A stretch of DNA of 64,000 bases from Candidatus Dadabacteria bacterium (GTDB lineage Bacteria > Desulfobacterota_D > UBA1144 > Nemesobacterales > UBA2774), in NCBI GenBank assembly GCA_020849425.1, contig JADLGH010000007.1:2732-66731 (forward strand), given 5' to 3'. Position 1 is the first letter of the stretch, and each line of letters begins with the position of its first letter. The position numbers and the translations under genes were made by a program. The notes below the pieces were generated by a model. That model was not told where the DNA came from and ran no database searches. It saw only the letters and a program-made list of their open reading frames with translations. Below are positions 4,653-44,600 of the stretch, one piece after another.

Positions 4653-4826
4653 CATTCCGCTGCACTGAAAATGCAATTGCTGCGGCGGCAGGTCATATTC
4701 CCTTTTCTAATTCGTTAAAATGGCTGGGGCTATTGAATACACTTCGAACCCCGGAATATCATCCTCTTTTAGGTCACTTTACCCGTACAGCTTTCGGGTG
4801 AGGGTCAAAGCACGGGTATCGCGCTT

Positions 4827-5594
4827 TCAGTGATGCTCGTGATTGCTGTTAATCCCGATAACTAATACCAGCAACAGGGTAAGGGTAGCGGGAAGAGAAA
4901 GTACCAATAAACCCCAGCCGGGCGAGTTTTTCCCTGTTGCCGGATCGTAATTGAAACAGGAAAAAGACCGTTTGTTGTCGGGTAAAGGATAGGAAGGTAC
5001 GAAAACATCGTTTATTTCTACTATCATGGCGCCAAGGGCCGCCTCATTTCTCAATCCTATCAGTTTCTTGGTAATGAGACCGTTCCTGTTAATTCCTATC
5101 AACAACGCTTCGTGATCGAATTGCCTTTTGGCGCCGGCCCGGACAGGGTTAAACCCTATGGACCGGTTTAACTTATCGATCTCGCGAGAGACAGCAAACT
5201 CCCACCTGGGATCTTCGTCCAGGGTAAATCTTTTGGCCATACCCTGCATATCCTCAAGGGTATCGAGCGGATCGAAGCTGAGTACGAGAATCGTAAACTC
5301 CCTTTTGGGGTCTATCAATTCGATGTTCTCCTTCAACCTCATCAGGAGCGGATTGCAAACGCCGGCACAGCGTGTATAAACCAGGGTTAATATTATCGGC
5401 CGACCGCTGTATATTTCCGACAGGTATATGCCTCCTTCCTCCGTTGTTACCCTTATATCCGCTACGGGTTGATATATATTAGTCTCCTCATCCAAATTAT
5501 AGACCGGAGTCAGTGCGTATAATTTCGGAGCCCATAATAGAAGGATCATCGGGAATATGTAAGCAGCTTTAAGCATTTTCGTAATATATCCCAA
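4827..5594 (-). CDS. SCO1/SenC-family copper chaperone (thioredoxin-like)
   Basis: CAGVC (CxxxC) motif, an N-terminal membrane anchor and a C-terminal membrane helix. Lies downstream of the heme-copper oxidase subunits I and II on the same strand. The true start may be an internal Met (positions 7 or 16), which would reduce the 49-nt overlap with the upstream gene. Confidence 0.7.
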   Translation of the reverse strand: MGYITKMLKAAYIFPMILLLWAPKLYALTPVYNLDEETNIYQPVADIRVTTEEGGIYLSEIYSGRPIILTLVYTRCAGVCNPLLMRLKENIELIDPKREFTILVLSFDPLDTLEDMQGMAKRFTLDEDPRWEFAVSREIDKLNRSIGFNPVRAGAKRQFDHEALLIGINRNGLITKKLIGLRNEAALGAMIVEINDVFVPSYPLPDNKRSFSCFNYDPATGKNSPGWGLLVLSLPATLTLLLVLVIGINSNHEHH

Positions 5595-6988
5595 AAGAAA
5601 ATGAGAACTGCCGCCAGATATACGGCGGCGAATACAGCCGCAATCCGGGCAAAAGATGCAGCTAATGAAAACTCCATCGGATAAATATTGAACCTTCTGG
5701 GAATTGAATATGCGCCTCCCAGATAGAACATCAAAAGAAATCCTGTTCCACCGACGAGCAGTAGTGCTATCTTTAGCCTGTTGGCTCCGCCACTCTCACC
5801 AATGCCGGCAAAACGGTTTGCCGCCCAGTTAAAAAAGGCCAGGCTGAACAAAACATTCCCCATGGCATTATAAGTATGAAAATGCGCCGGCACCCACAGG
5901 GTGTTGTGCAGCACAAGATTATTGGTGATCGTAGCATCGATCACGGCGCCTAATCCGCCGATTACCCATCCCGCCACACCCATGAAATACAAAACGTTAG
6001 TGAGCGACCAGCGTATCGAATTGCGGTAAATCAAGGTCAGAACGCTAAAAACAGTCACGACGGCCGCCGGTAAACTCGCCAGGTAAGAGGCTACCTGTCC
6101 TACAATCTGAAAGCTCTCCGGCTGAACGAAATCCATATACATATGATGGAAGAACGCAGTGAGGATAAAAACCAGGGTACAATTCCACGCCAGAGCGACA
6201 TACCAGGTAGTTTTCCATTTGGGGCGGCCGCTCACTTCCGGGAATAGCTCATATAGGGTCGCCAAGCCCAGATAGAGCATCTCGTTCGCGATGGTGTGAC
6301 CGAAGAAATAGGTAAGGTTCTTCATCAGGAGCGGATCATTTACAAACGTTCCCGAAGAAAAATACTCCGCGAAGAAGAGCACGATCAGTAATACTGCAGC
6401 CAGCAAACAGGTGATAACTCCGATTAAAGTTATAACGGTTATCAAAATAAACGGCGGGGTTTCAAAAGATGGATTCTTACCGAAGTGCTGCCATGCGAGC
6501 GCCCGTGTGATCGAATATTTCTTAAAAATCGCCATCAGCAGACTTACGCTCCACACCAGCCAGCCGACACCCAGGATTGTCAAAGAAACGAAAAATAATG
6601 GAGTGGCCCACCCCGCCCAGGCGATTTTAAAGGGCAAGGGATATAAAAAAGTCCATCCGGTGTGAAATTTGCCGACAAACGTAGTTACCCATAACAGTAC
6701 GACCCCGATTATGGTAAACAGCAGCGCAAATATGTTTGACTTTACCGGCGCAGAGACATAGCGCTGCATTAAATAATTCACACCGACCATTCCCGCTACG
6801 AACCAAATCCCGATCATGGTAAACCCGTGAGTGGTCATCTGGGAATAGAAGACTACGGGTGATTGACTGATTACCCCTCCCTGGCTGAGCCGCATGATTA
6901 TTCCCAATACCACGCTCAGGATAAAGAGCAAAAGTATGGCAATGATCCAGATAGATGTGGTTCTTGCGAGTGTAGTTCTTTCCATCAT
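5546..6988 (-). CDS. heme-copper oxidase superfamily subunit I (divergent; lacks cross-link Tyr, NOR-like)
   Basis: 12-TM protein with TMIGIWFV, FFGHTIANE (CuB His but no Tyr at +4), HHMY and HFHTYN heme-ligand motifs. At 480 aa it is shorter than A-family CoxI. Confidence 0.85.
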   Translation of the reverse strand: MMERTTLARTTSIWIIAILLLFILSVVLGIIMRLSQGGVISQSPVVFYSQMTTHGFTMIGIWFVAGMVGVNYLMQRYVSAPVKSNIFALLFTIIGVVLLWVTTFVGKFHTGWTFLYPLPFKIAWAGWATPLFFVSLTILGVGWLVWSVSLLMAIFKKYSITRALAWQHFGKNPSFETPPFILITVITLIGVITCLLAAVLLIVLFFAEYFSSGTFVNDPLLMKNLTYFFGHTIANEMLYLGLATLYELFPEVSGRPKWKTTWYVALAWNCTLVFILTAFFHHMYMDFVQPESFQIVGQVASYLASLPAAVVTVFSVLTLIYRNSIRWSLTNVLYFMGVAGWVIGGLGAVIDATITNNLVLHNTLWVPAHFHTYNAMGNVLFSLAFFNWAANRFAGIGESGGANRLKIALLLVGGTGFLLMFYLGGAYSIPRRFNIYPMEFSLAASFARIAAVFAAVYLAAVLIFFWDILRKCLKLLTYSR

Positions 6989-6995
6989 AATTTAA

Positions 6996-7559
6996 TCACC
7001 TTACTGTAAACGATGCTCTCATTACGGCATGCGCCAATCCGCAAAACTCGAGACACAGCACCTTATAAGTTCCCGGCTTTTCGAACTTCCACCTGAGACG
7101 GTTTACGTAACCCGGCATGGCCTGCGTCTGGGCTATAAGGTTGTTGCTTTCATCGTATATGCCAAACCCGTGGTTAACGTCCAGGCTCGTTACCCTGAAC
7201 TCGACCAGCTCGCCTCTTTTCAATTCTATCGCCTCTCCTGCGCCGGGATTTCCGGGTCCTATAGCCTCAGAGGACAGGGCCCAGTAATACTGCTGGGCAG
7301 CAACGAACACAACCCTCGAAGGACTCTCCTTTTCAAACAGGTAATATGGTGATTTCGGAATGGTGAATGAAGCAAAAATAAAGAGGGCTGCGGTCAAAAG
7401 CAAAAAGAACCAGAATCGCTGGGTGTTATTAAGGCCTTTTCCGTCTTCCTTTTGCGAACTTTTTGCACCCGATGAGAGATAGACGTAGACGAATACTATG
7501 GCGACAAGTGCTGCCAGCAGCAAGAATAAGACTAGAATGAATTCATGTTTATCGCTCAT
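6996..7559 (-). CDS. heme-copper oxidase subunit II with CuA centre (cupredoxin)
   Basis: Two N-terminal TM helices followed by a cupredoxin domain. CuA ligand motifs are VNHGFGIYD and CLEFCGLAHAVM (C-x-E-x-C-G-x2-H-x2-M). Confidence 0.8.
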   Translation of the reverse strand: MSDKHEFILVLFLLLAALVAIVFVYVYLSSGAKSSQKEDGKGLNNTQRFWFFLLLTAALFIFASFTIPKSPYYLFEKESPSRVVFVAAQQYYWALSSEAIGPGNPGAGEAIELKRGELVEFRVTSLDVNHGFGIYDESNNLIAQTQAMPGYVNRLRWKFEKPGTYKVLCLEFCGLAHAVMRASFTVR

Positions 7560-7683
7560 ATCACCCCCTCATCCGTCCTCGATCACAGCATTTAAATTTT
7601 TTCTGCGCCCCGGTCGCTCTACAAAAATGCGTTGGATAACTGGATAAAAATGCACTTCCTTGACATCAGCCCTATATCATTTT

Positions 7684-7696
7684 ATGATATTATCAT
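7684..7696. promoter_or_regulatory. perfect 13-bp palindrome ATGATA-T-TATCAT in divergent oxidase/Rrf2 promoter region
   Basis: Read directly from the sequence. It sits in the 184-bp AT-rich intergenic region between the oxidase subunit II start (7559, minus) and the Rrf2 start (7744, plus). Confidence 0.4.
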
Positions 7697-7743
7697 GAGA
7701 ATGTGATAAATGCAATTCTCGGTTTCTACCGGATCGATAGATA

Positions 7744-8193
7744 ATGATTTCTCAAACATCACGTTATGCTTTAAAAGCTTTGGTTTTTCTCGTTCAGAAG
7801 GGTGGGGGGGGTCCCGTCAAAGTAAAGGAAGTCTCAGAAAATTTGGATATCCCCCAAAACTACCTCTCAAAAATATTTCACGTGCTCACCCGAAGCGGCG
7901 TGTTGAAATCGACCACCGGAAAATCAGGGGGGTTTCAGCTGGCGGTCCCGACCGACCGGCTTCTGCTCGCGAAAATTATAGCGCCGTTCGAGTCGTCCGA
8001 ATTCCCCGTCGCATGCATACTCGGTCAAGCCGTATGCTCGGATGAAAATCCGTGCGCGGCCCACAACAAATGGAAGGCAATTTCAGCACTCGTCGGCTCT
8101 TTCTTCGACATGACGACACTCCAGGAGATTCTGGAACGAGAAAATATGCATGACGGATGCGCCGCTGCCGCGACATTATCCGAGGAACAATAA
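7744..8193 (+). CDS. Rrf2-family transcriptional regulator (NsrR/IscR-like, 3-Cys cluster ligands)
   Basis: N-terminal wHTH MISQTSRYALKALVFL. Three-Cys motif CxxxxxxCxxxxxC (CILGQAVCSDENPC), typical of Fe-S-binding Rrf2 regulators. Confidence 0.8.
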   Translation: MISQTSRYALKALVFLVQKGGGGPVKVKEVSENLDIPQNYLSKIFHVLTRSGVLKSTTGKSGGFQLAVPTDRLLLAKIIAPFESSEFPVACILGQAVCSDENPCAAHNKWKAISALVGSFFDMTTLQEILERENMHDGCAAAATLSEEQ

Positions 8194-8247
8194 ACCGGGT
8201 TATATCGCAAGGATTAACAAAACTCATCTATAAGGAGGTAAGACAAA

Positions 8248-8724
8248 ATGGAGCATAATAATTTTCTCGAGGCTTTCAAAGAAGAGCATAAGATAATTTT
8301 TAATAATTTGCTGAGCCTGAAAGACGCGGTGGAACGAAAAGACACCGAGGACGCTGAAAATCTGGTCAGGTTTCTGGATGAGATCATGGGACCTCATTTC
8401 AGGGTCGAGGAGGAAGCTCTCTACCCGATGTTGGCCGAATACTTTGGAGAGGATAGCGTCGAACACCTCCTGGAGGAACATACGATGGCAACCGAGGCAA
8501 TGAATGAATTCAAGCATAACATCGGGAACAAACAATATATGGTCGAGCGTGGAGAAGACACGTTAAAAAAACTTCAAGGATTTTTCCTGCATGTAACGAG
8601 CTGCGACGGGCTCTCCATAATAATCGAAAAGTTCTCAGACCGCCAGAAAAAGAATCTCGACGCACATCTGACGAAGGTCAGGGACGAGGCAATTCCTCTG
8701 ACAGTTTGGAAACAGGGAATATAA
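8248..8724 (+). CDS. hemerythrin-like (HHE cation-binding) domain protein
   Basis: His/Glu motifs HKIIFNNL, HFRVEEEALYP and EHLLEEH. RBS AAGGAGG at 8232. Lower-GC region. Confidence 0.7.
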   Translation: MEHNNFLEAFKEEHKIIFNNLLSLKDAVERKDTEDAENLVRFLDEIMGPHFRVEEEALYPMLAEYFGEDSVEHLLEEHTMATEAMNEFKHNIGNKQYMVERGEDTLKKLQGFFLHVTSCDGLSIIIEKFSDRQKKNLDAHLTKVRDEAIPLTVWKQGI

Positions 8725-8862
8725 CCCGTACTCGACATAAACGAGTAAGGAAATGAATAGTGAGGAATCCTGGATCAGTTGTTCATACGTAAGTACCCGA
8801 TATGACGGGATAGTCACAAATAATTATTATAGAGGTCGAAAGCAATTCGAAGCATAAATGTC

Positions 8863-9240
8863 ATGGAAACACATATAAAACAATTTCTTCTCAATGCAGA
8901 TTCGAAAGCGCTGGCAACGCTGTCTCGCGATGGTGCAATTAACGTCGTCCCTGTATCATCGATAAAAATTATCGAAGACAAGATCGTGCTCGTTAATTAC
9001 TTCATGGAAAAAACATTAGATAATATCCTGAGCAATGATAATATTGCACTGGTCGCATGGTCCGGAATGGCAGGATATCAGGTTAAAGGCAAGGCGGAAT
9101 ACAGGACATCCGGTGATACTTTTGACATGGTGACAAGCTGGATTAGAGAGACTATCCCTGGTCGTGTAGTAAAAGGCGTTCTCATCATAGAATCTGCTGA
9201 AGTTTACAATGTCGCACCCGACAAAAAAAGGCCGGAATAA
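8863..9240 (+). CDS. pyridoxamine 5'-phosphate oxidase-like FMN-binding split-barrel protein
   Basis: LATLSRDGAINVVPVS...IVLVNYF...VKGKAEY pattern of the PNPOx-like family. Length 125 aa. Confidence 0.6.
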   Translation: METHIKQFLLNADSKALATLSRDGAINVVPVSSIKIIEDKIVLVNYFMEKTLDNILSNDNIALVAWSGMAGYQVKGKAEYRTSGDTFDMVTSWIRETIPGRVVKGVLIIESAEVYNVAPDKKRPE

Positions 9241-9673
9241 GATTATCTTCCGCAACATCGCGAGCCGCGAGGTAATGCACTAGACCGAGCCGGTGTCCTG
9301 AACGATATAAGTCCTTATATGTCCCGGTACAGGAAAGTTTTACAGTATGTGACCTAAAGAAGTAAGAGTCATGTCTTCCGGGGGCTTGACACCATTAGAC
9401 AAGAGTATTACTACCGACGCAGAAAGTGTCATGAACTAAAAACCAGGCAATATTCGATTAACGAGCGGATTAAAAGGTATCTAAAGCCGATGGAACTTTC
9501 AAAGTTACTCTTTCCATAGCATCAGGGCTTATGAGCTTTTCGAAAGTTCGAAAATAGAGCAAAAGAGGAAACTGATCAACCATGTATTTTCGAGCCTCGA
9601 ATTAGATGCAACCCTCCGTTATTCTTTGAAAAAACCCTTTGATTTAATGGTAGATTGCCATACTCATAAGGAA

Positions 9674-9747
9674 TGGCTGGGGCACTAGGATTCGAACCTA
9701 GACTGATGGATCCAGAGTCCATAGTACTACCGTTATACTATGCCCCA
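9674..9747 (-). tRNA. tRNA-Gln (anticodon CTG)
   Basis: The reverse complement reads TGGGGCATAGTATAACGGTAGTACTATGGACTCTGGATCCATCAGTCTAGGTTCGAATCCTAGTGCCCCAGCCA. Acceptor stem TGGGGCA/TGCCCCA, anticodon loop CTCTGGA (CTG), T-arm GGTTCGAATCC and 3' CCA. It is closely similar to E. coli tRNA-Gln. Confidence 0.85.
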
Positions 9748-9861
9748 GCGGAAGGCCTTTAGTATTTATAATAACACACATGGAGTCAAGTATCTTGATT
9801 GGCCGCACGCATTCGATACAATAGAGTTACAAAACTTTTTAATCCGGCAAGGAGAAAGGCG

Positions 9862-10041
9862 ATGCCCGCAAAGACGCTGACAGTAAGCGCCAAAAAGAAA
9901 ACGGAGCTCAGGGCCAAGGTCGACAAGGCCGTAAAGGACGCCGCCAAACAGGGACTTATTTTCGTAAAGTCGGGGTACAGGGAAGACAAGATAAAGAAAT
10001 CGAAAGGCGGTTATGAAATCGAGATAGAAGTTCATTCCTAG
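9862..10041 (+). CDS. small Lys-rich hypothetical protein (59 aa)
   Basis: ATG 9862 is preceded by AAGGAGAAAGG. Product [59 protein letters not shown]. Ends with TAG, 13 nt before queF. Confidence 0.35.
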
Positions 10042-32220: not shown

Positions 32221-33687
32221 TTAAGATTTAATACGTGTGGGAAGGTTCTTTAGATTGCCCAAAGCAAAACGGCTGTTGCTGCCCTCTCCACATTCTGAAC
32301 AAGATGGGCCTTTACGTGGTTCATCAAATGACATTTGACGGTATCTTGGAATGAAACGCATATAGCTCCGCTCCGCGTTCTGTTCTGTAAGACCTGTCAT
32401 ATATAACATAAAATCATTGGCTGCTTGTGAAGCAGATATTGCGTTGAGAGTTATTACGCTTGGTGCGTGTACTTCAATATCATTAACGTATCTTTGGGCA
32501 GCAAGCTCTTTTTTCCCTTGCCCTTCTTCCTGAAGCTTGGAGGGATCAATAACCTGATTGCACAAAAGACATCCTGCATCAGGAGTAACTGGTCTCACTA
32601 TACTGAAAATGTCTCCTACTTCACCTGTTTCCCCATCAACCGGCACCTTCGCACCAACCTGGACGCCCGGTATCAGGTATTGATGCACAATCGCATTAAA
32701 TAACAATCTTGCACGCATAGTGTCAGCAGCGAGAAATATATAGTCACAATCAAGAAGTCGATTAGCATTTTCTAAATCCAAAACATTGCCATAAACAGCC
32801 TCTATGAGAGCATTCTTGTTTGCTCTACTTATAATTCTCTTTGCGATAGATACCTTTTTCCTAGCCAGTCTTTTTGCCATATTCCGAATCCAAGACGGCA
32901 TACGTTGATCAGCTAACCAGGTAAGGGCATCAAATCTTGTTGCACCGACAACACGAGGAAGGTTAGAAATTTCTATACGGTCATCATCTATCAGTACGAA
33001 GCGACCAACGCCTAGGTGTCCCAAGTACTCAGCCAGGAGAGAGCCTGCACCACCAAGCCCGATAATTCCAATTTTTGTCTTACGCAATATTTGTTGTCCG
33101 ACATTCCCAAAAAGAAGTGCCTGACGGTCATAGGTCTCATCCCGCAAAAGGCTAGTTCCGACCGGAGCATCTCTTAGCAATCGCCTCCGATGTCCGATAA
33201 TGGTCGCGGACGAGAGTTTTATCCGACTATGATCAGAGAGCCAGATATCTCCTGCTACTGCATTTGTTGCAAACACTAAAGCCCCAACGGGCATTCCACT
33301 GGCTATATCCAACAACGCTGGATATACGCGTTCATGGCTCTGCATGTCTTCATGCGAAAAGGCAACTGAGTCAAAACCGCTATGATTATGTACTGCAAGA
33401 TATACAAGCCTTTTATCCCTGCATTCAAGTATATGATTCTGGATAAAATTAGCCTTGAGCATACGATAACCACGAACGCCCGGAACGTAATCTTGCCCGT
33501 CAATCGCGATATGTAGACTACGCGCCAGCAGTCTTACACGGCCGTCCGTAGTTGAGGCTACACCGGCCTTTATAATAGCACCGTGTTCATCACAATCACC
33601 CGGAAATAAATGAGCGTTCAGCTTCTCGTACATATCCCCCGACAATACCAATTCACAATGCCTTCCCTTTATCTGGAGTTTATCCAT
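32221..33687 (-). CDS. JAB/MPN metalloprotease domain fused to E1-like (ThiF/MoeB/UBA) adenylyltransferase
   Basis: N-terminal JAMM-like motifs are E-x2-G (DEHGAIIKAG) and HNHSGFDSVAFSHED (HxH...S-x2-D). The central Rossmann GIIGLGGAGS plus FVLIDDDRIEISNLPR match an E1 nucleotide-binding core. The C-terminal CxxC...CxxC (CLLC, CSEC) resembles the MoeB-type Zn site. Confidence 0.65.
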   Translation of the reverse strand: MDKLQIKGRHCELVLSGDMYEKLNAHLFPGDCDEHGAIIKAGVASTTDGRVRLLARSLHIAIDGQDYVPGVRGYRMLKANFIQNHILECRDKRLVYLAVHNHSGFDSVAFSHEDMQSHERVYPALLDIASGMPVGALVFATNAVAGDIWLSDHSRIKLSSATIIGHRRRLLRDAPVGTSLLRDETYDRQALLFGNVGQQILRKTKIGIIGLGGAGSLLAEYLGHLGVGRFVLIDDDRIEISNLPRVVGATRFDALTWLADQRMPSWIRNMAKRLARKKVSIAKRIISRANKNALIEAVYGNVLDLENANRLLDCDYIFLAADTMRARLLFNAIVHQYLIPGVQVGAKVPVDGETGEVGDIFSIVRPVTPDAGCLLCNQVIDPSKLQEEGQGKKELAAQRYVNDIEVHAPSVITLNAISASQAANDFMLYMTGLTEQNAERSYMRFIPRYRQMSFDEPRKGPSCSECGEGSNSRFALGNLKNLPTRIKS

Positions 33688-34094
33688 TCTATCACCTTGA
33701 GAAGTTTAATTTGAGGTGTTTCGAGATTCGACGAGTTATCTCTTCTATTTGATTTTCTTGAAATTTGAACGGCTGTGCGGCGTTCTCTTTGAGGAATATG
33801 TTTAGCATTTGCAGGTGGATATACATGCCCTTTTGAAAAGGCTTCTCCCAGTTCCTTTGAATCCTTACGAGAAAGATCGTCCCTTACAAAATGGGGATAA
33901 ACATCCGCATAGGGACAGGTATGCGTTATATGAAAACCAATCCATGTTTCACTCTGATTGTAAGTCGATGACAAAGTTATACTTTCGATAATAACAAACG
34001 CCCCGCCTTGCGCATCGGAGAAATAACGCAGGTTATTCTCTCCGTAATGTTCTTTTAACTCTTTAATTGCAGATTCGACGTCAGGGGTTAGCAT
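33669..34094 (-). CDS. hypothetical protein, possibly E2-like (small alpha/beta protein with conserved Cys)
   Basis: 141 aa with a candidate catalytic Cys in FHITHTCPYADVYPHF. It overlaps the downstream JAB-E1 gene by 19 nt, consistent with translational coupling. The E2 assignment comes from operon context and is uncertain. Confidence 0.35.
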   Translation of the reverse strand: MLTPDVESAIKELKEHYGENNLRYFSDAQGGAFVIIESITLSSTYNQSETWIGFHITHTCPYADVYPHFVRDDLSRKDSKELGEAFSKGHVYPPANAKHIPQRERRTAVQISRKSNRRDNSSNLETPQIKLLKVIEWINSR

Positions 34095-34106
34095 GACACA
34101 TCCTCT

Positions 34107-34793
34107 TTATGAATTATCATCATTTGCAATGGCAATAAATTTTTGACCGCGCTGAACCTTAACCATCTCACTATCGGCGACGATCTTAGTCCTCCCGGGA
34201 CCCAGCTCCACAGACAGAATAAAATCCAGTTGTATATTTACACCTTGGTCTATGGCAGCCTGTTTAATATCCAACCCTGTATGTTCATAACCGATCACAA
34301 TAATAGGCTTCTCATTTATAAAGATTTTCACTCTTGAGTCTTGCCTCTGTATTACAAAAAATCTTTCCAAAGAATTCGGGGAAAGATCTACCGTTTCTGC
34401 ATTATTTATAAGGCGGTCCTCATCCTGCCCACGCGCTTCAAGCCAAACCTCATATTCTTCCGGGTCAACTCTTGCAAGTTTCTTAAGCTGCAGGCCAGAT
34501 ATAAGATTGGCTCCCCATGGAAACGAACGCCCGTCTAAGACAAAACGAAAGATGCGATCTGTCTTAAACGTCAGAAATTCCATAATACCGGCCTTACAAA
34601 TATCGATGATTTCATCAAGCCCGATTACTTCTAATAGTCCGTTGTCCAAGAACGTAAGAACTACATGCTCTTCAACCGGACGCTTTCCAGCCTTATCTAG
34701 AAGTTGTCTTCCCAGTGGTTTGGGATCCTCGATTAAAAACCTTTCTCCATCAATTAACACCACATACTCTTTTTCGCCTAGACTTAGATTCAT
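34107..34793 (-). CDS. protein with three tandem beta-grasp (ubiquitin-like) repeats (multi-ubiquitin-like)
   Basis: Three internal repeats of ~70 aa, each with hxhxIDG/NEK ... G(L)D/Q ... pattern (KEYVVLIDGERF..., FRFVLDGRSF..., VKIFINEKPIIV...). First gene of a 3-gene minus-strand operon. No C-terminal GG. Confidence 0.5.
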   Translation of the reverse strand: MNLSLGEKEYVVLIDGERFLIEDPKPLGRQLLDKAGKRPVEEHVVLTFLDNGLLEVIGLDEIIDICKAGIMEFLTFKTDRIFRFVLDGRSFPWGANLISGLQLKKLARVDPEEYEVWLEARGQDEDRLINNAETVDLSPNSLERFFVIQRQDSRVKIFINEKPIIVIGYEHTGLDIKQAAIDQGVNIQLDFILSVELGPGRTKIVADSEMVKVQRGQKFIAIANDDNS

Positions 34794-34945
34794 TTTTACC
34801 TCCGAACCTTTAGATTTTTTTATTCGGCTATCAGCGAGCCCGTAACTACACCTTAAACTTCGCCAAATCAGATGTCAAGTGTTGCACGCCTAAAATAATG
34901 TATAGCATAACAATACATCATCTTTAAAATTTTGGGCGTTTTAGG

Positions 34946-34975
34946 TTGACAGAAGAATTTATCCTGTATTATTAT
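34946..34975 (+). promoter_or_regulatory. sigma-70-type promoter TTGACA-N17/18-TATTAT giving leaderless/short-leader transcript for the HTH gene
   Basis: TTGACA at 34946-34951 and TATTAT at 34970-34975, with the ATG of the HTH gene at 34982. Confidence 0.5.
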
Positions 34976-34981
34976 AGAGTT

Positions 34982-35341
34982 ATGAATGAAAGCTCAATTT
35001 ACGAGAAAATAGGCGCACTTATTAAGAAAAATCGCGTTAATCGTAATATGACTCAAAGCGATTTAGCAAAGAGAGTTGGGCTTTCAAGAGGTTCCATAGC
35101 AAATATAGAAAATGGTTCTCAGCGTATCCTCGTACATCAACTCTATATCTTCTCAAAGTATCTAGAAATTAAAACTGAAGATTTATTGCCAGAACATTTA
35201 GAAGAAAATATTGAGAACATAAAGAAAATTCAGATAGAAGTGCGAGGATCGCAAGATAATACTGTGCACAAGCAAACAAATGACAAATTGTTATCTTGGA
35301 TAAGCGAAATGATGGGAAAGGCCACACATGACCGAACCTAA
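34982..35341 (+). CDS. XRE-family HTH transcriptional regulator (Cro/CI-type; CapH-like)
   Basis: HTH_3 domain LIKKNRVNRNMTQSDLAKRVGLSRGSIANIENGSQ. It overlaps the downstream ImmA-like gene by 14 nt. Start ATG 34982; the ORF track start at 34946 is the -35 hexamer. Confidence 0.75.
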   Translation: MNESSIYEKIGALIKKNRVNRNMTQSDLAKRVGLSRGSIANIENGSQRILVHQLYIFSKYLEIKTEDLLPEHLEENIENIKKIQIEVRGSQDNTVHKQTNDKLLSWISEMMGKATHDRT

Positions 35342-35879
35342 ATCATACGCAGTCAGCATACTTCAAAAATTTAAAATTAATTTTGTCCCTGTTCCCGTTG
35401 AAGATATAGCAAAAGGGCTTGGTGCTAAAGTTGTATTCTCAGCTCTTGAAGATAGTCATTGTGGAATGATTCATATGCAAGGTAACATCATCGTGATAGG
35501 AGTCAATTCAATACATCCCAAAAATCGACAAAGGTTTACTATTGCACATGAAATTGGCCACCTCGTTATGCATAAGGACGAAATTAGTGAAAGTATTCAT
35601 ATAGATCAAGCCTTTGGTGAAAGATTAAACCGAGATGGAAGATCCTCTTTAGGAGAAGATTTAAAAGAAGTACAGGCTAACAGATTTGCGGCTGAGCTTT
35701 TGATGCCAACCAGTATCTTAAAAAGGGAAACTAAGAATCAGCGTATTGATATTGAAGATAGTGAATTTATTGAAAAGCTGGCTCAAAAATTTCAGGTAAG
35801 TTTTCAGTCCATGTCTATTAAATTACTCGATACTTTTTATAAAAACTATTCATTATCAACTTCTAAGTTGCATCCTTAA
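35328..35879 (+). CDS. ImmA/IrrE-family zinc metallopeptidase (HEXXH; CapP-like)
   Basis: HEIGH motif (FTIAHEIGHLVMH). The N-terminus is typical of DUF955/ImmA. Paired with the XRE HTH. Confidence 0.8.
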   Translation: MTEPKSYAVSILQKFKINFVPVPVEDIAKGLGAKVVFSALEDSHCGMIHMQGNIIVIGVNSIHPKNRQRFTIAHEIGHLVMHKDEISESIHIDQAFGERLNRDGRSSLGEDLKEVQANRFAAELLMPTSILKRETKNQRIDIEDSEFIEKLAQKFQVSFQSMSIKLLDTFYKNYSLSTSKLHP

Positions 35880-41582: not shown

Positions 41583-42989
41583 ATGTACAAAACGGGTGAG
41601 TCCGAGCCGGGGATTTTCCGCCGGCTCTTTTATGTTTTTGTTCTTTGTGCACTCTGCCCGGTGTTTTTTCTGACGTCTTGCGGGGAGGGCGATTCGTCGG
41701 ACACGTCACCGGAGCCTGAGCCGACTGCCGGGCCTGTAAGAGCAGGCGGCGATACGAGTGTTTATAACCGCACTTCTTTTGCATTCGAGGTGCCCGCAGC
41801 GAATCTATCGGAGGAGTCCTTGATAAAGCATTTAAACGGCGACGTGACGTTCGGCGACATTTTCGTTACGCCTCCCGCGCCGAGAAATCCGGGACTCGGC
41901 CCGCTTTTCAACAACGTGTCGTGTGAGTCGTGCCACGTGAAAAACGGGAGAGGGCAGCCTGTGTTCGGCAATACGGGCCTCAGGAGCCACGGGCTCATCA
42001 GGGTTTCCGACCCCGGAGGAACGCCGCTCGTCCCGGGCGGTAATCGCCCGGTGGAAGGGCTCGGCGAGCAAATACAGGACCACGCGACCTTCGGATTTAC
42101 ACCCGAGGGCGAGGTCTTCCTCGACTGGGAGGAAGTCCCCGGCGCCTATCCGGACGGGACACCGTACAGTCTCAGGCGGCCCATTGTCGAAGTCATTCTC
42201 TCGAACGGGGAGCCGCTGCCGGATCATATAGAAAGATCTATGAGGCTGCCGCCGCCCGTAATCGGTCTCGGTCTTCTCGAAGCCGTATCGGAAGAAACCT
42301 TACTCGAAAGGGCGGACCCCGACGACGCGGACGGCGACGGTATATCCGGGCGGCCGAACATAGTCTGGAACACCGTTACTTCCAACTTCGAGCTGGGGAG
42401 ATTCGGGCATAAGGCGAGCTCGCGCAATCTGCGTGAGCAGGCCGTGAAAGCATATTCCGAGGACATGGGGGTTACGAACCCTGACCTCCCGGGCGAAGAC
42501 CCCGAGCCCGATATAGACGAGGAGACGGTCGAGCTCACGACGTTCTACACACAGACGCTCACTGTGCCGCTCAGGCTCGACACCGACGACCCCGACGTCC
42601 CCGCGGGCGAGCGCATATTTAACGACATAGGGTGCGAGCAGTGCCACAGGTCGGTTATAAGAACCGGCACACACGAGCTCCCCGAGCTCAGTAACCAGCT
42701 CATACAGCCCTTTACGGACCTTCTCCTCCACGACATGGGCGAGGGGCTCGCCGATCACAGGCCGGACCACGACGCAAGCGGGACGGAATGGCGGACAGCG
42801 CCGCTCTGGGCGATAGGACTTACGAGAACCGTCTCGGGCGTACAGAACTTTCTCCACGACGGGCGTGCGAGGACGCTCGAAGAGGCGATACTCTGGCACG
42901 ACGGCGAGGCGCACGGCGCAAAGGAACGTTTTATGAATTTAAACAAAACCGAGCGTGAAAAGCTCATCAAATTCTTGAACGCGCTTTGA
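41583..42989 (+). CDS. di-heme c-type cytochrome, DUF1111/thiol-oxidoreductase-like (cytochrome c peroxidase-related)
   Basis: Two heme c sites, CESCH and CEQCH. Lipoprotein-like signal (FFLTSC). Commonly paired with imelysin proteins. Confidence 0.75.
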   Translation: MYKTGESEPGIFRRLFYVFVLCALCPVFFLTSCGEGDSSDTSPEPEPTAGPVRAGGDTSVYNRTSFAFEVPAANLSEESLIKHLNGDVTFGDIFVTPPAPRNPGLGPLFNNVSCESCHVKNGRGQPVFGNTGLRSHGLIRVSDPGGTPLVPGGNRPVEGLGEQIQDHATFGFTPEGEVFLDWEEVPGAYPDGTPYSLRRPIVEVILSNGEPLPDHIERSMRLPPPVIGLGLLEAVSEETLLERADPDDADGDGISGRPNIVWNTVTSNFELGRFGHKASSRNLREQAVKAYSEDMGVTNPDLPGEDPEPDIDEETVELTTFYTQTLTVPLRLDTDDPDVPAGERIFNDIGCEQCHRSVIRTGTHELPELSNQLIQPFTDLLLHDMGEGLADHRPDHDASGTEWRTAPLWAIGLTRTVSGVQNFLHDGRARTLEEAILWHDGEAHGAKERFMNLNKTEREKLIKFLNAL

Positions 42990-42998
42990 GGAAGGAAC

Positions 42999-44600
42999 GT
43001 GAAGATGAAAAAATTTATTCTCCCATCGCTCTTTATCATTTTGGCGACACTTCTGGCGGGCGATTTCGCCTATTCACAGGCCCAGCCCAGTAGTAACGAA
43101 CTACAGGAGCTCAAGGAGATGGTAAGGCAGCTCCAGCTCGACAACGCCCGGAGAGTGGAGGAGATAGAACAGCTGAAAAAAGAGAACACCGAGAAGATCG
43201 AGGCCCTCGAAAAGAAGGTTGACGAGCTCTCCGGCGAGAAGCCGGTCGTGGTGGAAAAAGGCGCGCCCGGCAAGCCTGCCGCGCCTTCGGCACCGGTAGC
43301 GCCGGGAGAAGCCACCGAGGAAGAAACCCTTAAGGCCGCCGAGGAAGAAGAGCGTGACGTCAGCGAGGAAAACTTCTTCGAGATGGTGAACAGGGGCGAA
43401 AAACCCTACAAGAAGCTCGTCGACGAGGGGCCGTTCCAGCTCACCTGGGAAGGGTACGCCGATATTCTCTTTTCGTGGTACGGCTACGGCCCGGACCAGA
43501 CGCGACCCGGGGGTTCGGGCTCGTATGACAGGCTCGAATTCGACCTGTCCCGCTTCGTGATCGAGCTTGAGGGCGAGATGTTCGCGGGGCTCGGCTTCGA
43601 GGCCGAGATAGAATTCGAGCACGGCGGCACGGGCTCTACGTTCGAAATAGAATACGAGGAATTCGGCGAATACGAGAAAGAGATCGAAAAGGGCGGAGAG
43701 GTGTACGTCGAAGAGCTCTACCTATATAAAAAATTCAGCGACTGGGGAAAGCTGAAGGCCGGGCGTTTTTACCTTGCGTTCGGACTCATGTCGTTCCTCA
43801 GCAAGCCTACGGATTACCTCGCCGCGAGGAGGCCCGAATCCGAGACGATGGTCATACCGGCCGTATGGGACGAGATGGGCGCCAGCTTCGAGTATTACGC
43901 GACGGACAGCCTGAATCTCACGTTCCAGGTCGTAAACGGGCTCGACTCGACGGGATTCGGCTCGCTTAACTGGATACGCGGCGGACACCAGGGGAAATTT
44001 GAAACTATAAAGGCGACGGGGCTCGCAATGGTGGGCAGGATCGATTACAAGTTCCTCGACTACGGGCTTCTCGTGGGCACATCGGCCTACTACGGCTTCG
44101 ACACCTCGGCCAACAGGCCCAAGGACGACCTTCCCGACGTGGACGCACCTATACTGCTGCTCGACGCCCACGCCATATTCAACTACGGAAAATGGCGCGG
44201 AAGCGGTCTCTTCGTGTGGGGGCACCTCTGGGACGCAGCCGAGGTCTCGGAAAGGAACGCGAGGCTTTCGAACAACCTCGACGTACCGAGGACCGCCGTT
44301 TCCGACAACGCGATTTCGGCATGGGCCGAGCTCGGCTACAACATAAACACATACGTCGGGCTCAATCACCTCCACCGTCTCGAGCCCTTCTTCAGGGTCG
44401 ATTACTACGACACGATGTTCGACCCGCGTAACGACCTCTTCGACAACCCGAGGTACGAAAGAACAGTGCTCACGGGAGGGCTTTCTTACACGTTCGCGAA
44501 TGCAGTCTTCGTAAAGCTCGACTACGGCTACAGGATGATAGCCGCGAGCGACCTCAACAACGAAAGCACGATAGACCTCGCCTTCGGGTGGGTGTACTGA
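42999..44600 (+). CDS. outer-membrane beta-barrel protein with N-terminal coiled-coil (porin-like)
   Basis: Signal peptide, a coiled-coil segment (LQELKEMVRQLQLDNARRVEEIEQLKKENTEKIEALEKKVDEL), an Ala/Pro/Glu-rich linker, and a beta-rich region with alternating hydrophobic residues ending with aromatic FGWVY. Confidence 0.5.
   Translation: MKMKKFILPSLFIILATLLAGDFAYSQAQPSSNELQELKEMVRQLQLDNARRVEEIEQLKKENTEKIEALEKKVDELSGEKPVVVEKGAPGKPAAPSAPVAPGEATEEETLKAAEEEERDVSEENFFEMVNRGEKPYKKLVDEGPFQLTWEGYADILFSWYGYGPDQTRPGGSGSYDRLEFDLSRFVIELEGEMFAGLGFEAEIEFEHGGTGSTFEIEYEEFGEYEKEIEKGGEVYVEELYLYKKFSDWGKLKAGRFYLAFGLMSFLSKPTDYLAARRPESETMVIPAVWDEMGASFEYYATDSLNLTFQVVNGLDSTGFGSLNWIRGGHQGKFETIKATGLAMVGRIDYKFLDYGLLVGTSAYYGFDTSANRPKDDLPDVDAPILLLDAHAIFNYGKWRGSGLFVWGHLWDAAEVSERNARLSNNLDVPRTAVSDNAISAWAELGYNINTYVGLNHLHRLEPFFRVDYYDTMFDPRNDLFDNPRYERTVLTGGLSYTFANAVFVKLDYGYRMIAASDLNNESTIDLAFGWVY

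Follow-up and report, generated by a model that had tools for sequence, protein, structure and literature searches.

We examined a 64,000-nucleotide stretch of DNA from a Candidatus Dadabacteria bacterium (contig JADLGH010000007.1; hereafter the window), in which a compact locus at positions 4827-8724 probably encodes an sNOR-type heme-copper nitric oxide (NO) reductase, in the form of a norS-norY-senC cassette with its own regulator. Membership in sNOR is indicated by an Asn in place of the active-site Tyr, a CuA-bearing subunit and an adjoining senC gene. The locus adds a member to an already described family and not a new kind of enzyme, and the finding is confirmatory rather than surprising. 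The initial annotation, made from the DNA letters alone, had proposed an unconventional NO reductase of the CuANOR, eNOR or sNOR type. The sNOR part of that proposal stands, on the Asn, the CuA site and the gene order; the word unconventional does not, as the family is known.

All five open reading frames (ORFs) of the locus fall within 4827-8724, and their coordinates and Pfam matches agree with the oxidase, CuA subunit II, Sco, Rrf2 and hemerythrin genes named in the initial annotation. Read along the minus strand from 7559 to 4827, subunit II, subunit I and Sco follow one another, which is the order norS-norY-senC. The cluster of ammonia oxidizers is norSY-senC-orf1, with NorS as subunit II and NorY as the catalytic subunit (PMC4940428; 10.1101/765727). 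NorS of the window (6996-7559, minus strand; 187 amino acids) matches Pfam COX2 (1.3e-06), NCBIfam CoxB (5e-23) and the C-terminal CuA domain of NosZ (1.8e-10), and is laid out as two N-terminal transmembrane or hydrophobic helices followed by a cupredoxin domain. Its CuA site is complete, as had been read from the translation: H130 and C169-x-E171-x-C173-G-x-x-H177-x-x-M180 are all present, with the CuA loop encoded at 7020-7055. NorY, the catalytic subunit I (5546-6988, minus strand; 480 amino acids, 12 predicted transmembrane helices), matches Pfam COX1 at 1.3e-48. The JGI gene call for this protein (P0001, 449 amino acids) starts 31 residues too late; the 480-residue version is the better model because the alignment of relatives begins at residue 1, and T11 and W14 do not vary in it. 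The Sco1/SenC-type copper chaperone gene senC (4827-5594, minus strand; Pfam SCO1-SenC 3.8e-07) encodes the CxxxC motif noted previously (C76, C80), together with H161 and a C-terminal transmembrane segment. Its real start is probably M7 at 5576, giving a protein of 249 amino acids like its relatives. The Sco ORF overlaps the 3' end of the subunit I gene, and this overlap recurs in the relative L001.

Subunit I retains the ligands of a heme-copper oxidase and has lost the cross-link Tyr. In a phmmer alignment to bovine COX1, H54 pairs with bovine H61, H231 with H240, H281/H282 with H290/H291, and H369/H371 with H376/H378; all six are invariant across the family alignment. H54 and H371 are the ligands of the low-spin heme, H369 that of the high-spin heme, and H231, H281 and H282 those of the B-site metal. 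The same six His ligands had been recognized in the initial annotation of the 480-residue protein, which placed the first heme His after TMIGIW; it actually stands before, in TTHGFTMIGIW. The helix VI active-site motif, encoded at 6281-6301 on the minus strand, is G230-H231-T-I-A-N235-E236 (GHTIANE). Both the translation and the bovine alignment bear out the earlier observation that Asn has replaced the cross-link Tyr and that Glu comes next: Asn235 pairs with bovine Y244 and is followed by Glu236. N235 is invariant in 22 diverse relatives. Migration of the Tyr in the manner of the C family was considered and rejected: the relevant position, 6 residues before H281, holds Ile275. Y284, in the HHxY motif, is also present in Tyr-bearing B-type enzymes, and Y373 adjoins the heme ligands on helix X.

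The AlphaFold2 (AF2) model of subunit I (predicted local distance difference test score 80, predicted template modelling score 0.85) has 12 long helices. Foldseek template modelling (TM) scores are 0.70-0.79 against A- and B-type oxidases and 0.53-0.66 against cbb3, cNOR and qNOR. The family profile has 59 matches in the PDB at E <= 1e-10, none of them a chain of cNOR, qNOR or cbb3, and neither the profile nor the Foldseek search of the PDB found a solved sNOR-like structure. By model and profile, subunit I is nearer to the A/B oxidases than to cNOR, qNOR or cbb3. The B-family ba3 oxidase of Thermus thermophilus has the 12-helix fold in common with it (TM 0.70-0.74) along with a CuA subunit II. 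Both enzymes have the HHxY motif and the K-channel Tyr, the latter as Y246 in our protein and Y248 in ba3 in a hand alignment on the helix VI motif. The difference lies in the active site, where ba3 has GHPIVY with the cross-linked Tyr237 at the position of Asn235.

Relatives of subunit I are numerous and span many phyla. An exhaustive search of 1.84 billion representative proteins returned 514 matches, and a scan of species-representative genomes at least 556 relatives. The genome loci analysed are the best 80 of the latter (44-73% identical), within a related-locus set of 87. These best 80 are mostly from Bacteroidota, Ignavibacteriota and Chlorobiota, and do not include a match to the window's own organism. 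Nearly all of the ~85 related loci with enough flanking sequence keep the subunit II-subunit I-Sco triad. Full-length relatives down to ~30% identity all carry H-x3-N, and sequences with Tyr (GHPVVY) appear only at ~30% identity or less. A neighbour-joining tree (470 columns, 200 bootstraps; without ammonia-oxidizer NorY and without bNOR, eNOR, nNOR or gNOR references) separates a Tyr-bearing outgroup clade with 100% support from all Asn-bearing relatives, including those of Ruegeria (Silicibacter) pomeroyi and of the Ca. Methylomirabilis oxyfera group. Residues N235, Y239, D351 and Y373 are family-wide and set these proteins apart from their Tyr-bearing relatives, in which the last three are F, N and M. 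The initial annotation had named, as the outcome that would count against it, a placement among B-family O2 reductases with a Tyr supplied from elsewhere. The relatives to ~30% identity carry Asn, the Tyr-bearing B-type sequences form their own clade, and the C-family Tyr position is Ile. A B-family O2 reductase would be expected to show the cross-link Tyr of GHPxVY, where our protein has Asn235, and we reject this label. Two further full-length proteins resembling heme-copper subunit I (P0191 and P0200, ~470 amino acids) have lost the helix VI, HH and HFH His ligands and keep the helix II His alone in a motif alignment; since these ligands are lost, the two are probably non-redox relatives of the family.

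Two named sNOR carriers anchor the family assignment. Proteins of Ca. Methylomirabilis oxyfera in the representative cluster P0128 are 38% identical to NorY of the window and have the motif GHTLANL. This organism carries qNOR, sNOR and gNOR (Murali et al.), and we take the P0128 protein to be the sNOR because it keeps three His ligands together with the Asn. A tblastn search of plasmids matched the R. pomeroyi megaplasmid at 35% identity; Silicibacter is named in the literature as an sNOR carrier. Its locus runs from a divergent Rrf2 gene through the genes of subunit II, subunit I (GHVFINA) and SCO to a hypothetical gene, a formate/nitrite transporter and cytochrome c. With the R. pomeroyi protein as query, the best 120 matches are all alphaproteobacterial. 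Like the sNORs of ammonia oxidizers, R. pomeroyi and Ca. M. oxyfera, the window enzyme combines six His ligands, the Asn, a CuA subunit II and the II-I-SenC order, and the origin of the family as a whole lies on the superfamily's B-type side (Stein 2007; Hemp & Gennis 2008; Murali et al. 2024). The divergent Rrf2 regulator is a further likeness to R. pomeroyi. Differences from the named sNORs are the Glu directly after the Asn along with clade-specific polar residues, the Thermodesulfobacteriota/Dadabacteria-like host, a regulator that is IscR-like and not NsrR-like in its ligand pattern, and, relative to the proteobacterial norSY-senC-orf1 cluster, the missing orf1. The R. pomeroyi orf1 has no tblastn match in the window or in the 87 related loci; this gene is probably accessory and peculiar to the proteobacterial branch.

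Signature residues, the two named sNOR carriers and the gene order are the basis of the assignment to sNOR. The residue at the Tyr site differs among families, being N in sNOR, N in CuANOR/bNOR, Q in eNOR, D in gNOR and E in cNOR/qNOR (PMC8756737 Appendix 2, after Hemp & Gennis 2008). The Asn signature is thus shared with bNOR (PMC8756737), nNOR has been described as closely related to sNOR (10.1101/592808), identity to the named sNOR carriers is only 33-38%, orf1 is absent and support at the deep nodes of the tree is low, all of which would fit an enzyme of another B-derived family (bNOR, nNOR, eNOR or gNOR) or of a new sister family. We regard this as improbable. The relatives, those of R. 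pomeroyi and M. oxyfera among them, form one Asn-bearing continuum, bNOR occurs only in Bacillales and has no close kinship with sNOR (PMC11214002), and the signatures of the remaining families disagree with the residues found. For nNOR, a Glu at the Tyr site and a Met coordinating the low-spin heme would be needed; the window protein has Asn235, keeps H54 and H371, and places its Glu236 at His+5, not at His+4. For eNOR the Tyr site should be Gln. For gNOR, an Asp should replace an active-site His and subunit II should lack CuA, where we find three B-site His and a full CuA site. Bacillaceae are represented among the relatives by P0139 alone, which joins the R. pomeroyi sNOR with 100% support in a tree that has no bona fide bNOR sequence.

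In cNOR and qNOR (NorB, NorZ), the predicted reaction, 2 NO -> N2O, is the same and the Tyr cofactor is likewise lost. These enzymes differ in having a Glu ligand to FeB at His+4, the position of our Asn, in a C-family-like fold and in drawing electrons from cytochrome c or quinol and not from CuA, which they lack; their structures 3o0r and 3ayf reach TM scores of only 0.53-0.58 to our model. The best functional analogue is bNOR (CuANOR) of Bacillus azotoformans, a proven electrogenic NO reductase with a CuA subunit and the same predicted active site of three His and an Asn; this likeness is drawn from its published description. It is reportedly confined to Bacillales and not close kin of sNOR, the resemblance being convergent, and it differs in a proton channel resembling the B-family K-channel. 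According to the literature, sNOR possesses a CuA subunit and shares its active site with bNOR, which is biochemically proven (PMC11214002, section 7).

Divergent from the cassette, an Rrf2-family regulator of 149 amino acids (7744-8193, plus strand; Pfam Rrf2 8.7e-28) is co-transcribed with a hemerythrin HHE-domain (di-iron) protein of 158 amino acids (8248-8724, plus strand). The regulator had been described as a three-Cys Rrf2 protein of the NsrR/IscR type. Its three Cys are there, in an IscR-like Cys3-His cluster-binding pattern (C91-x6-C98-x5-C104-x2-H107) in which H107 corresponds to the His ligand of IscR. We reject the NsrR label: in NCBIfam the protein scores highest against IscR, with 80.7 bits (cut-off 207.55), and reaches 39.4 bits for NsrR (cut-off 182); Arg7 occupies the position of the NsrR ligand Asp8; and the best PDB matches are CymR and IscR, that to S. 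coelicolor NsrR being weak (8e-4). Characterized NsrR and IscR regulators and the window protein are alike in their winged-helix Rrf2 fold and three clustered Cys, as well as in a setting divergent from an NO-related operon with AT-rich palindromes over the promoters. The window regulator is unlike both in falling far below the two equivalog cut-offs, unlike NsrR in lacking Asp8, and unlike IscR, whose His it keeps, in its C-x6-C-x5-C spacing. The R. pomeroyi regulator has NsrR as its best NCBIfam match. Rrf2 genes near eight Bacteroidota sNOR loci (L008, L011, L029, L037, L044, L054, L060, L062) encode the same C-x6-C-x5-C-x2-H spacing as in the window, in proteins only 25-27% identical to its regulator. 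There may be a distinct Rrf2 subgroup linked to sNORs of the type found here, with Glu after the Asn. The hemerythrin-like protein noted earlier matches Pfam Hemerythrin at 1.7e-11. Tested as a RIC/YtfE/ScdA repair protein, it shows PF01814 only and no ScdA_N, and an E-value of 0.13 leaves its match to the YtfE di-iron domain without significance.

The 184-bp control region between the divergent units (7560-7743) contains promoter candidates on both strands and palindromes. A scan found a candidate plus-strand promoter for the Rrf2-hemerythrin unit, TTGACA-17-TATGAT at 7660-7688 (11/12 match), and a weaker candidate on the minus strand at 7707-7679. The latter was preferred over a hand-picked TTGCAT -35 element for the minus-strand promoter, which agrees with the consensus at only 3/6 positions. 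Overlapping TATCA/TGATA palindromes extend over 7674-7709 (ATATCAT-N3-ATGATAT at 7674-7690 and TTATCA-N8-TGATAA at 7690-7709), and are the presumed operator of the Rrf2 protein. The arms of TTATCA-N8-TGATAA are conserved in the relatives L004 and L005, while its spacer varies.

The five genes form a unit with sharp boundaries. DNA homology between the window and L004/L005 (87% identical relatives) covers exactly 4859-8728, at 78% identity, a block that comprises Sco, NorY, NorS, Rrf2 and hemerythrin. Contexts diverge outside it, L004 continuing with DUF2249 plus cupin and a second hemerythrin. To judge from this shared block, the five genes move as one cassette. The next gene after hemerythrin, for a PNPOx-like FMN-binding split-barrel protein of 125 amino acids (8863-9240, plus strand; Pfam PNPOx_N 5.2e-14), lies within the same low-GC islet, yet is not part of the cassette common to the relatives and is missing in L004/L005. 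GC content is 41-49% over 4800-10000 and 53-63% in the flanks. A tRNA-Gln gene (CTG; 9674-9747, minus strand; ARAGORN, Rfam tRNA 65 bits) has its 3' end towards the islet. Alignment and pattern counting identified a 12-nucleotide direct repeat, AATGGCTGGGGC, that copies the 3' end of the tRNA-Gln, being its first 12 nucleotides on the islet side. It occurs exactly twice in the window, at 4719-4730 (plus strand) and 9672-9683, where 0.03 copies are expected, and the two copies bracket ~4.95 kb of low-GC DNA. From the low GC, the tRNA-Gln edge and the repeat, we place the cassette in a ~4.95-kb islet at a tRNA gene. No integrase is present in the islet. A search for an empty tRNA-Gln site, with the flanking glyoxalase gene against metagenome contigs, gave no syntenic relatives (best match 61% identical). 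Among named matches, those closest to the window's ComM/YifB marker (73-77% identity) come from metagenome-assembled genomes (MAGs) of Thermodesulfobacteriota, 'Deltaproteobacteria' and Ca. Dadabacteria. The sNORs of Thermodesulfobacteriota MAGs are only 47% identical to that of the window; its closest named relatives (~70%) are from Bacteroidota. The islet was probably acquired horizontally, its features being consistent with an old event, and the donor direction is inferred.

Neighbours recurring in the related loci include Rrf2 regulators (10 loci) and a protein combining six DUF2249 domains with ScdA_N and hemerythrin, RIC/YtfE-like (8 loci), as well as DUF1858 plus DUF2249, an Fe-S assembly protein, a CMD-family protein, a second Sco and cytochrome c. 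These recurrent neighbours indicate NO and Fe-S stress rather than aerobic respiration. The six-DUF2249 fusions (for example L036 2802-5075) are large, adjoin sNOR operons in Bacteroidota and represent the RIC/YtfE-type repair protein in an unusual form with multiple repeats.

Several points weigh against NO reduction by this enzyme, and some of them suit a different role: a terminal oxidase that scavenges O2 with high affinity, or an enzyme reducing both O2 and NO, guarding an oxygen-sensitive host against traces of O2, with the hemerythrin and Rrf2 proteins answering O2 or oxidative stress. Hemerythrins can also relate to O2, which their domains often bind, and the host lineage is typically anaerobic. 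The fold of subunit I is closest by Foldseek to O2 reductases. The regulator, by its sequence, is not an NsrR orthologue and is nearer to IscR. No nitrite reductase or other denitrification gene was found adjoining the cassette or among the scanned window proteins, and deep nodes among the Asn-bearing lineages are weakly supported in our tree, from which the ammonia-oxidizer, bNOR, eNOR, nNOR and gNOR references are absent. No purification or assay of an sNOR exists, and among the B-derived families measured activity was limited, as of 2026, to eNOR and bNOR (PMC11214002; PMC13592168). In Nitrosomonas europaea, sNOR genes are up 2.7-10.8-fold under O2 limitation, and a high-affinity oxidase role was suggested from this induction and from B-type affinities (10.1101/765727). 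We nevertheless consider a role in O2 reduction unlikely. The cross-linked Tyr, deemed indispensable for four-electron O2 reduction in the A, B and C families, is an invariant Asn throughout this family, and no substitute stands at the C-family position. The same active-site residues occur in bNOR, a proven NO reductase (PMC11214002), and NO-stress functions surround the relatives, among them RIC-like ScdA_N plus hemerythrin, DUF2249, an NsrR-like regulator and a nitrite transporter. It is the invariant Asn, the bNOR precedent and these neighbours that lead us to give the O2 role less weight than an sNOR-type NO reductase.

For an NO reductase of this type, we propose the following function. 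The CuA of NorS would accept electrons from a periplasmic carrier and pass them to the low-spin heme of NorY (H54/H371), and from there they would reach a binuclear site composed of the high-spin heme (H369) and a metal, either CuB or FeB, held by H231, H281 and H282. With the His-Tyr cofactor replaced by Asn235, this site appears suited to 2 NO + 2 e- + 2 H+ -> N2O + H2O, the substrate being inferred from its residues. SenC/Sco would load the CuA copper. The Rrf2 protein is predicted to carry an Fe-S cluster on Cys91, Cys98 and Cys104, probably with His107. Its most likely binding sites are the TATCA/TGATA palindromes, which overlap both promoters. Damage to the cluster by NO or oxidants would then release the protein from them and switch on both the enzyme and the di-iron hemerythrin-type protein. 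The small tRNA-Gln islet and the Thermodesulfobacteriota/Dadabacteria-like host make detoxifying or opportunistic NO scavenging likelier than full denitrification. Other heme or non-heme chemistry, such as NO dismutation, N2O reduction or the reduction of peroxynitrite or peroxide, with Asn-Glu as a new catalytic environment, strikes us as very improbable. Offshoots of the superfamily have been proposed as NO dismutases or N2O reductases, and those families are kin to qNOR/cNOR, not to the B family (PMC11214002). The subclade with Glu after the Asn does have conserved polar residues of its own; the gene context gives no pointer to such reactions, and electron input of the CuA type fits a reductase that consumes external electrons.

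Membership in this subclade (hereafter NE) sets the window enzyme apart from the named sNORs. In 59/87 loci the helix VI motif reads N-E; where it was matched in the remaining loci, it reads N-L, N-I or N-A. Neighbour-joining bootstrap support is 98% for the NE clade and 97% for a larger clade uniting it (plus P0124) with an N-L/N-I clade. NE is the commonest branch among the 80 closest genome loci, mostly from Bacteroidota, and has a cultured carrier in Gelidibacter japonicus Bio7-1 (locus L022, 69% identical). Specific to it are the polar residues N71, N85, H109, H168, C194, E236, Y263, N356, N374 and N378. By helix position in the AF2 model, E236 (helix VI, one residue past Asn235), N374 and N378 (both helix X) lie at mid-membrane depth, and N85 is near the cytoplasmic end of helix III. 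N71 pairs in the phmmer alignment with N80 of bovine COX1, a D-channel residue. Together with Y263, these residues could form a second, D-channel-like proton path or supply a carboxylate ligand for a non-heme iron, neither of which is found in other sNORs or in B-type oxidases. That the NE subclade is a mechanistically distinct sNOR variant is a tentative suggestion, and a doubtful one; if true, its NO reduction and energy conservation could be linked in a novel manner.

Elsewhere in the window, several sigma-54 activators are encoded, and a second low-GC region (32221-35879, 38-45% GC) holds several genes. On its minus strand, a Multiubiquitin-domain protein (34107-34793), a 141-amino-acid ORF (33669-34094) and a ThiF/E1-like protein (32221-33687) form one operon. 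Divergent from it on the plus strand are a CapH-like helix-turn-helix protein (34946-35341) and a CapP-like M78 peptidase (35328-35879; PADLOC capP 4.6e-34). The region looks like a bacterial ubiquitin-like conjugation island of the defence type under CapH/CapP control. A di-haem oxidoreductase (PF06537, DHOR, a putative peroxidase; 41583-42989) adjoins a porin-like gene (42999-44600) and has no relation to the cassette.

The sNOR family is one of several predicted NO reductase families that together are thought to account for a large share of the environmental capacity to produce N2O (nitrous oxide). The locus described here extends sNOR to a Thermodesulfobacteriota/Dadabacteria-like host, and shows subunit II, subunit I, SenC, an Fe-S Rrf2 regulator and hemerythrin travelling as a compact mobile cassette. 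It also brings out a large subclade, chiefly of Bacteroidota, in which a further Glu adjoins the Asn of the active site. Cultured carriers such as Gelidibacter japonicus, along with the self-contained five-gene cassette, offer a practical route to the question of whether sNOR acts on NO or O2.

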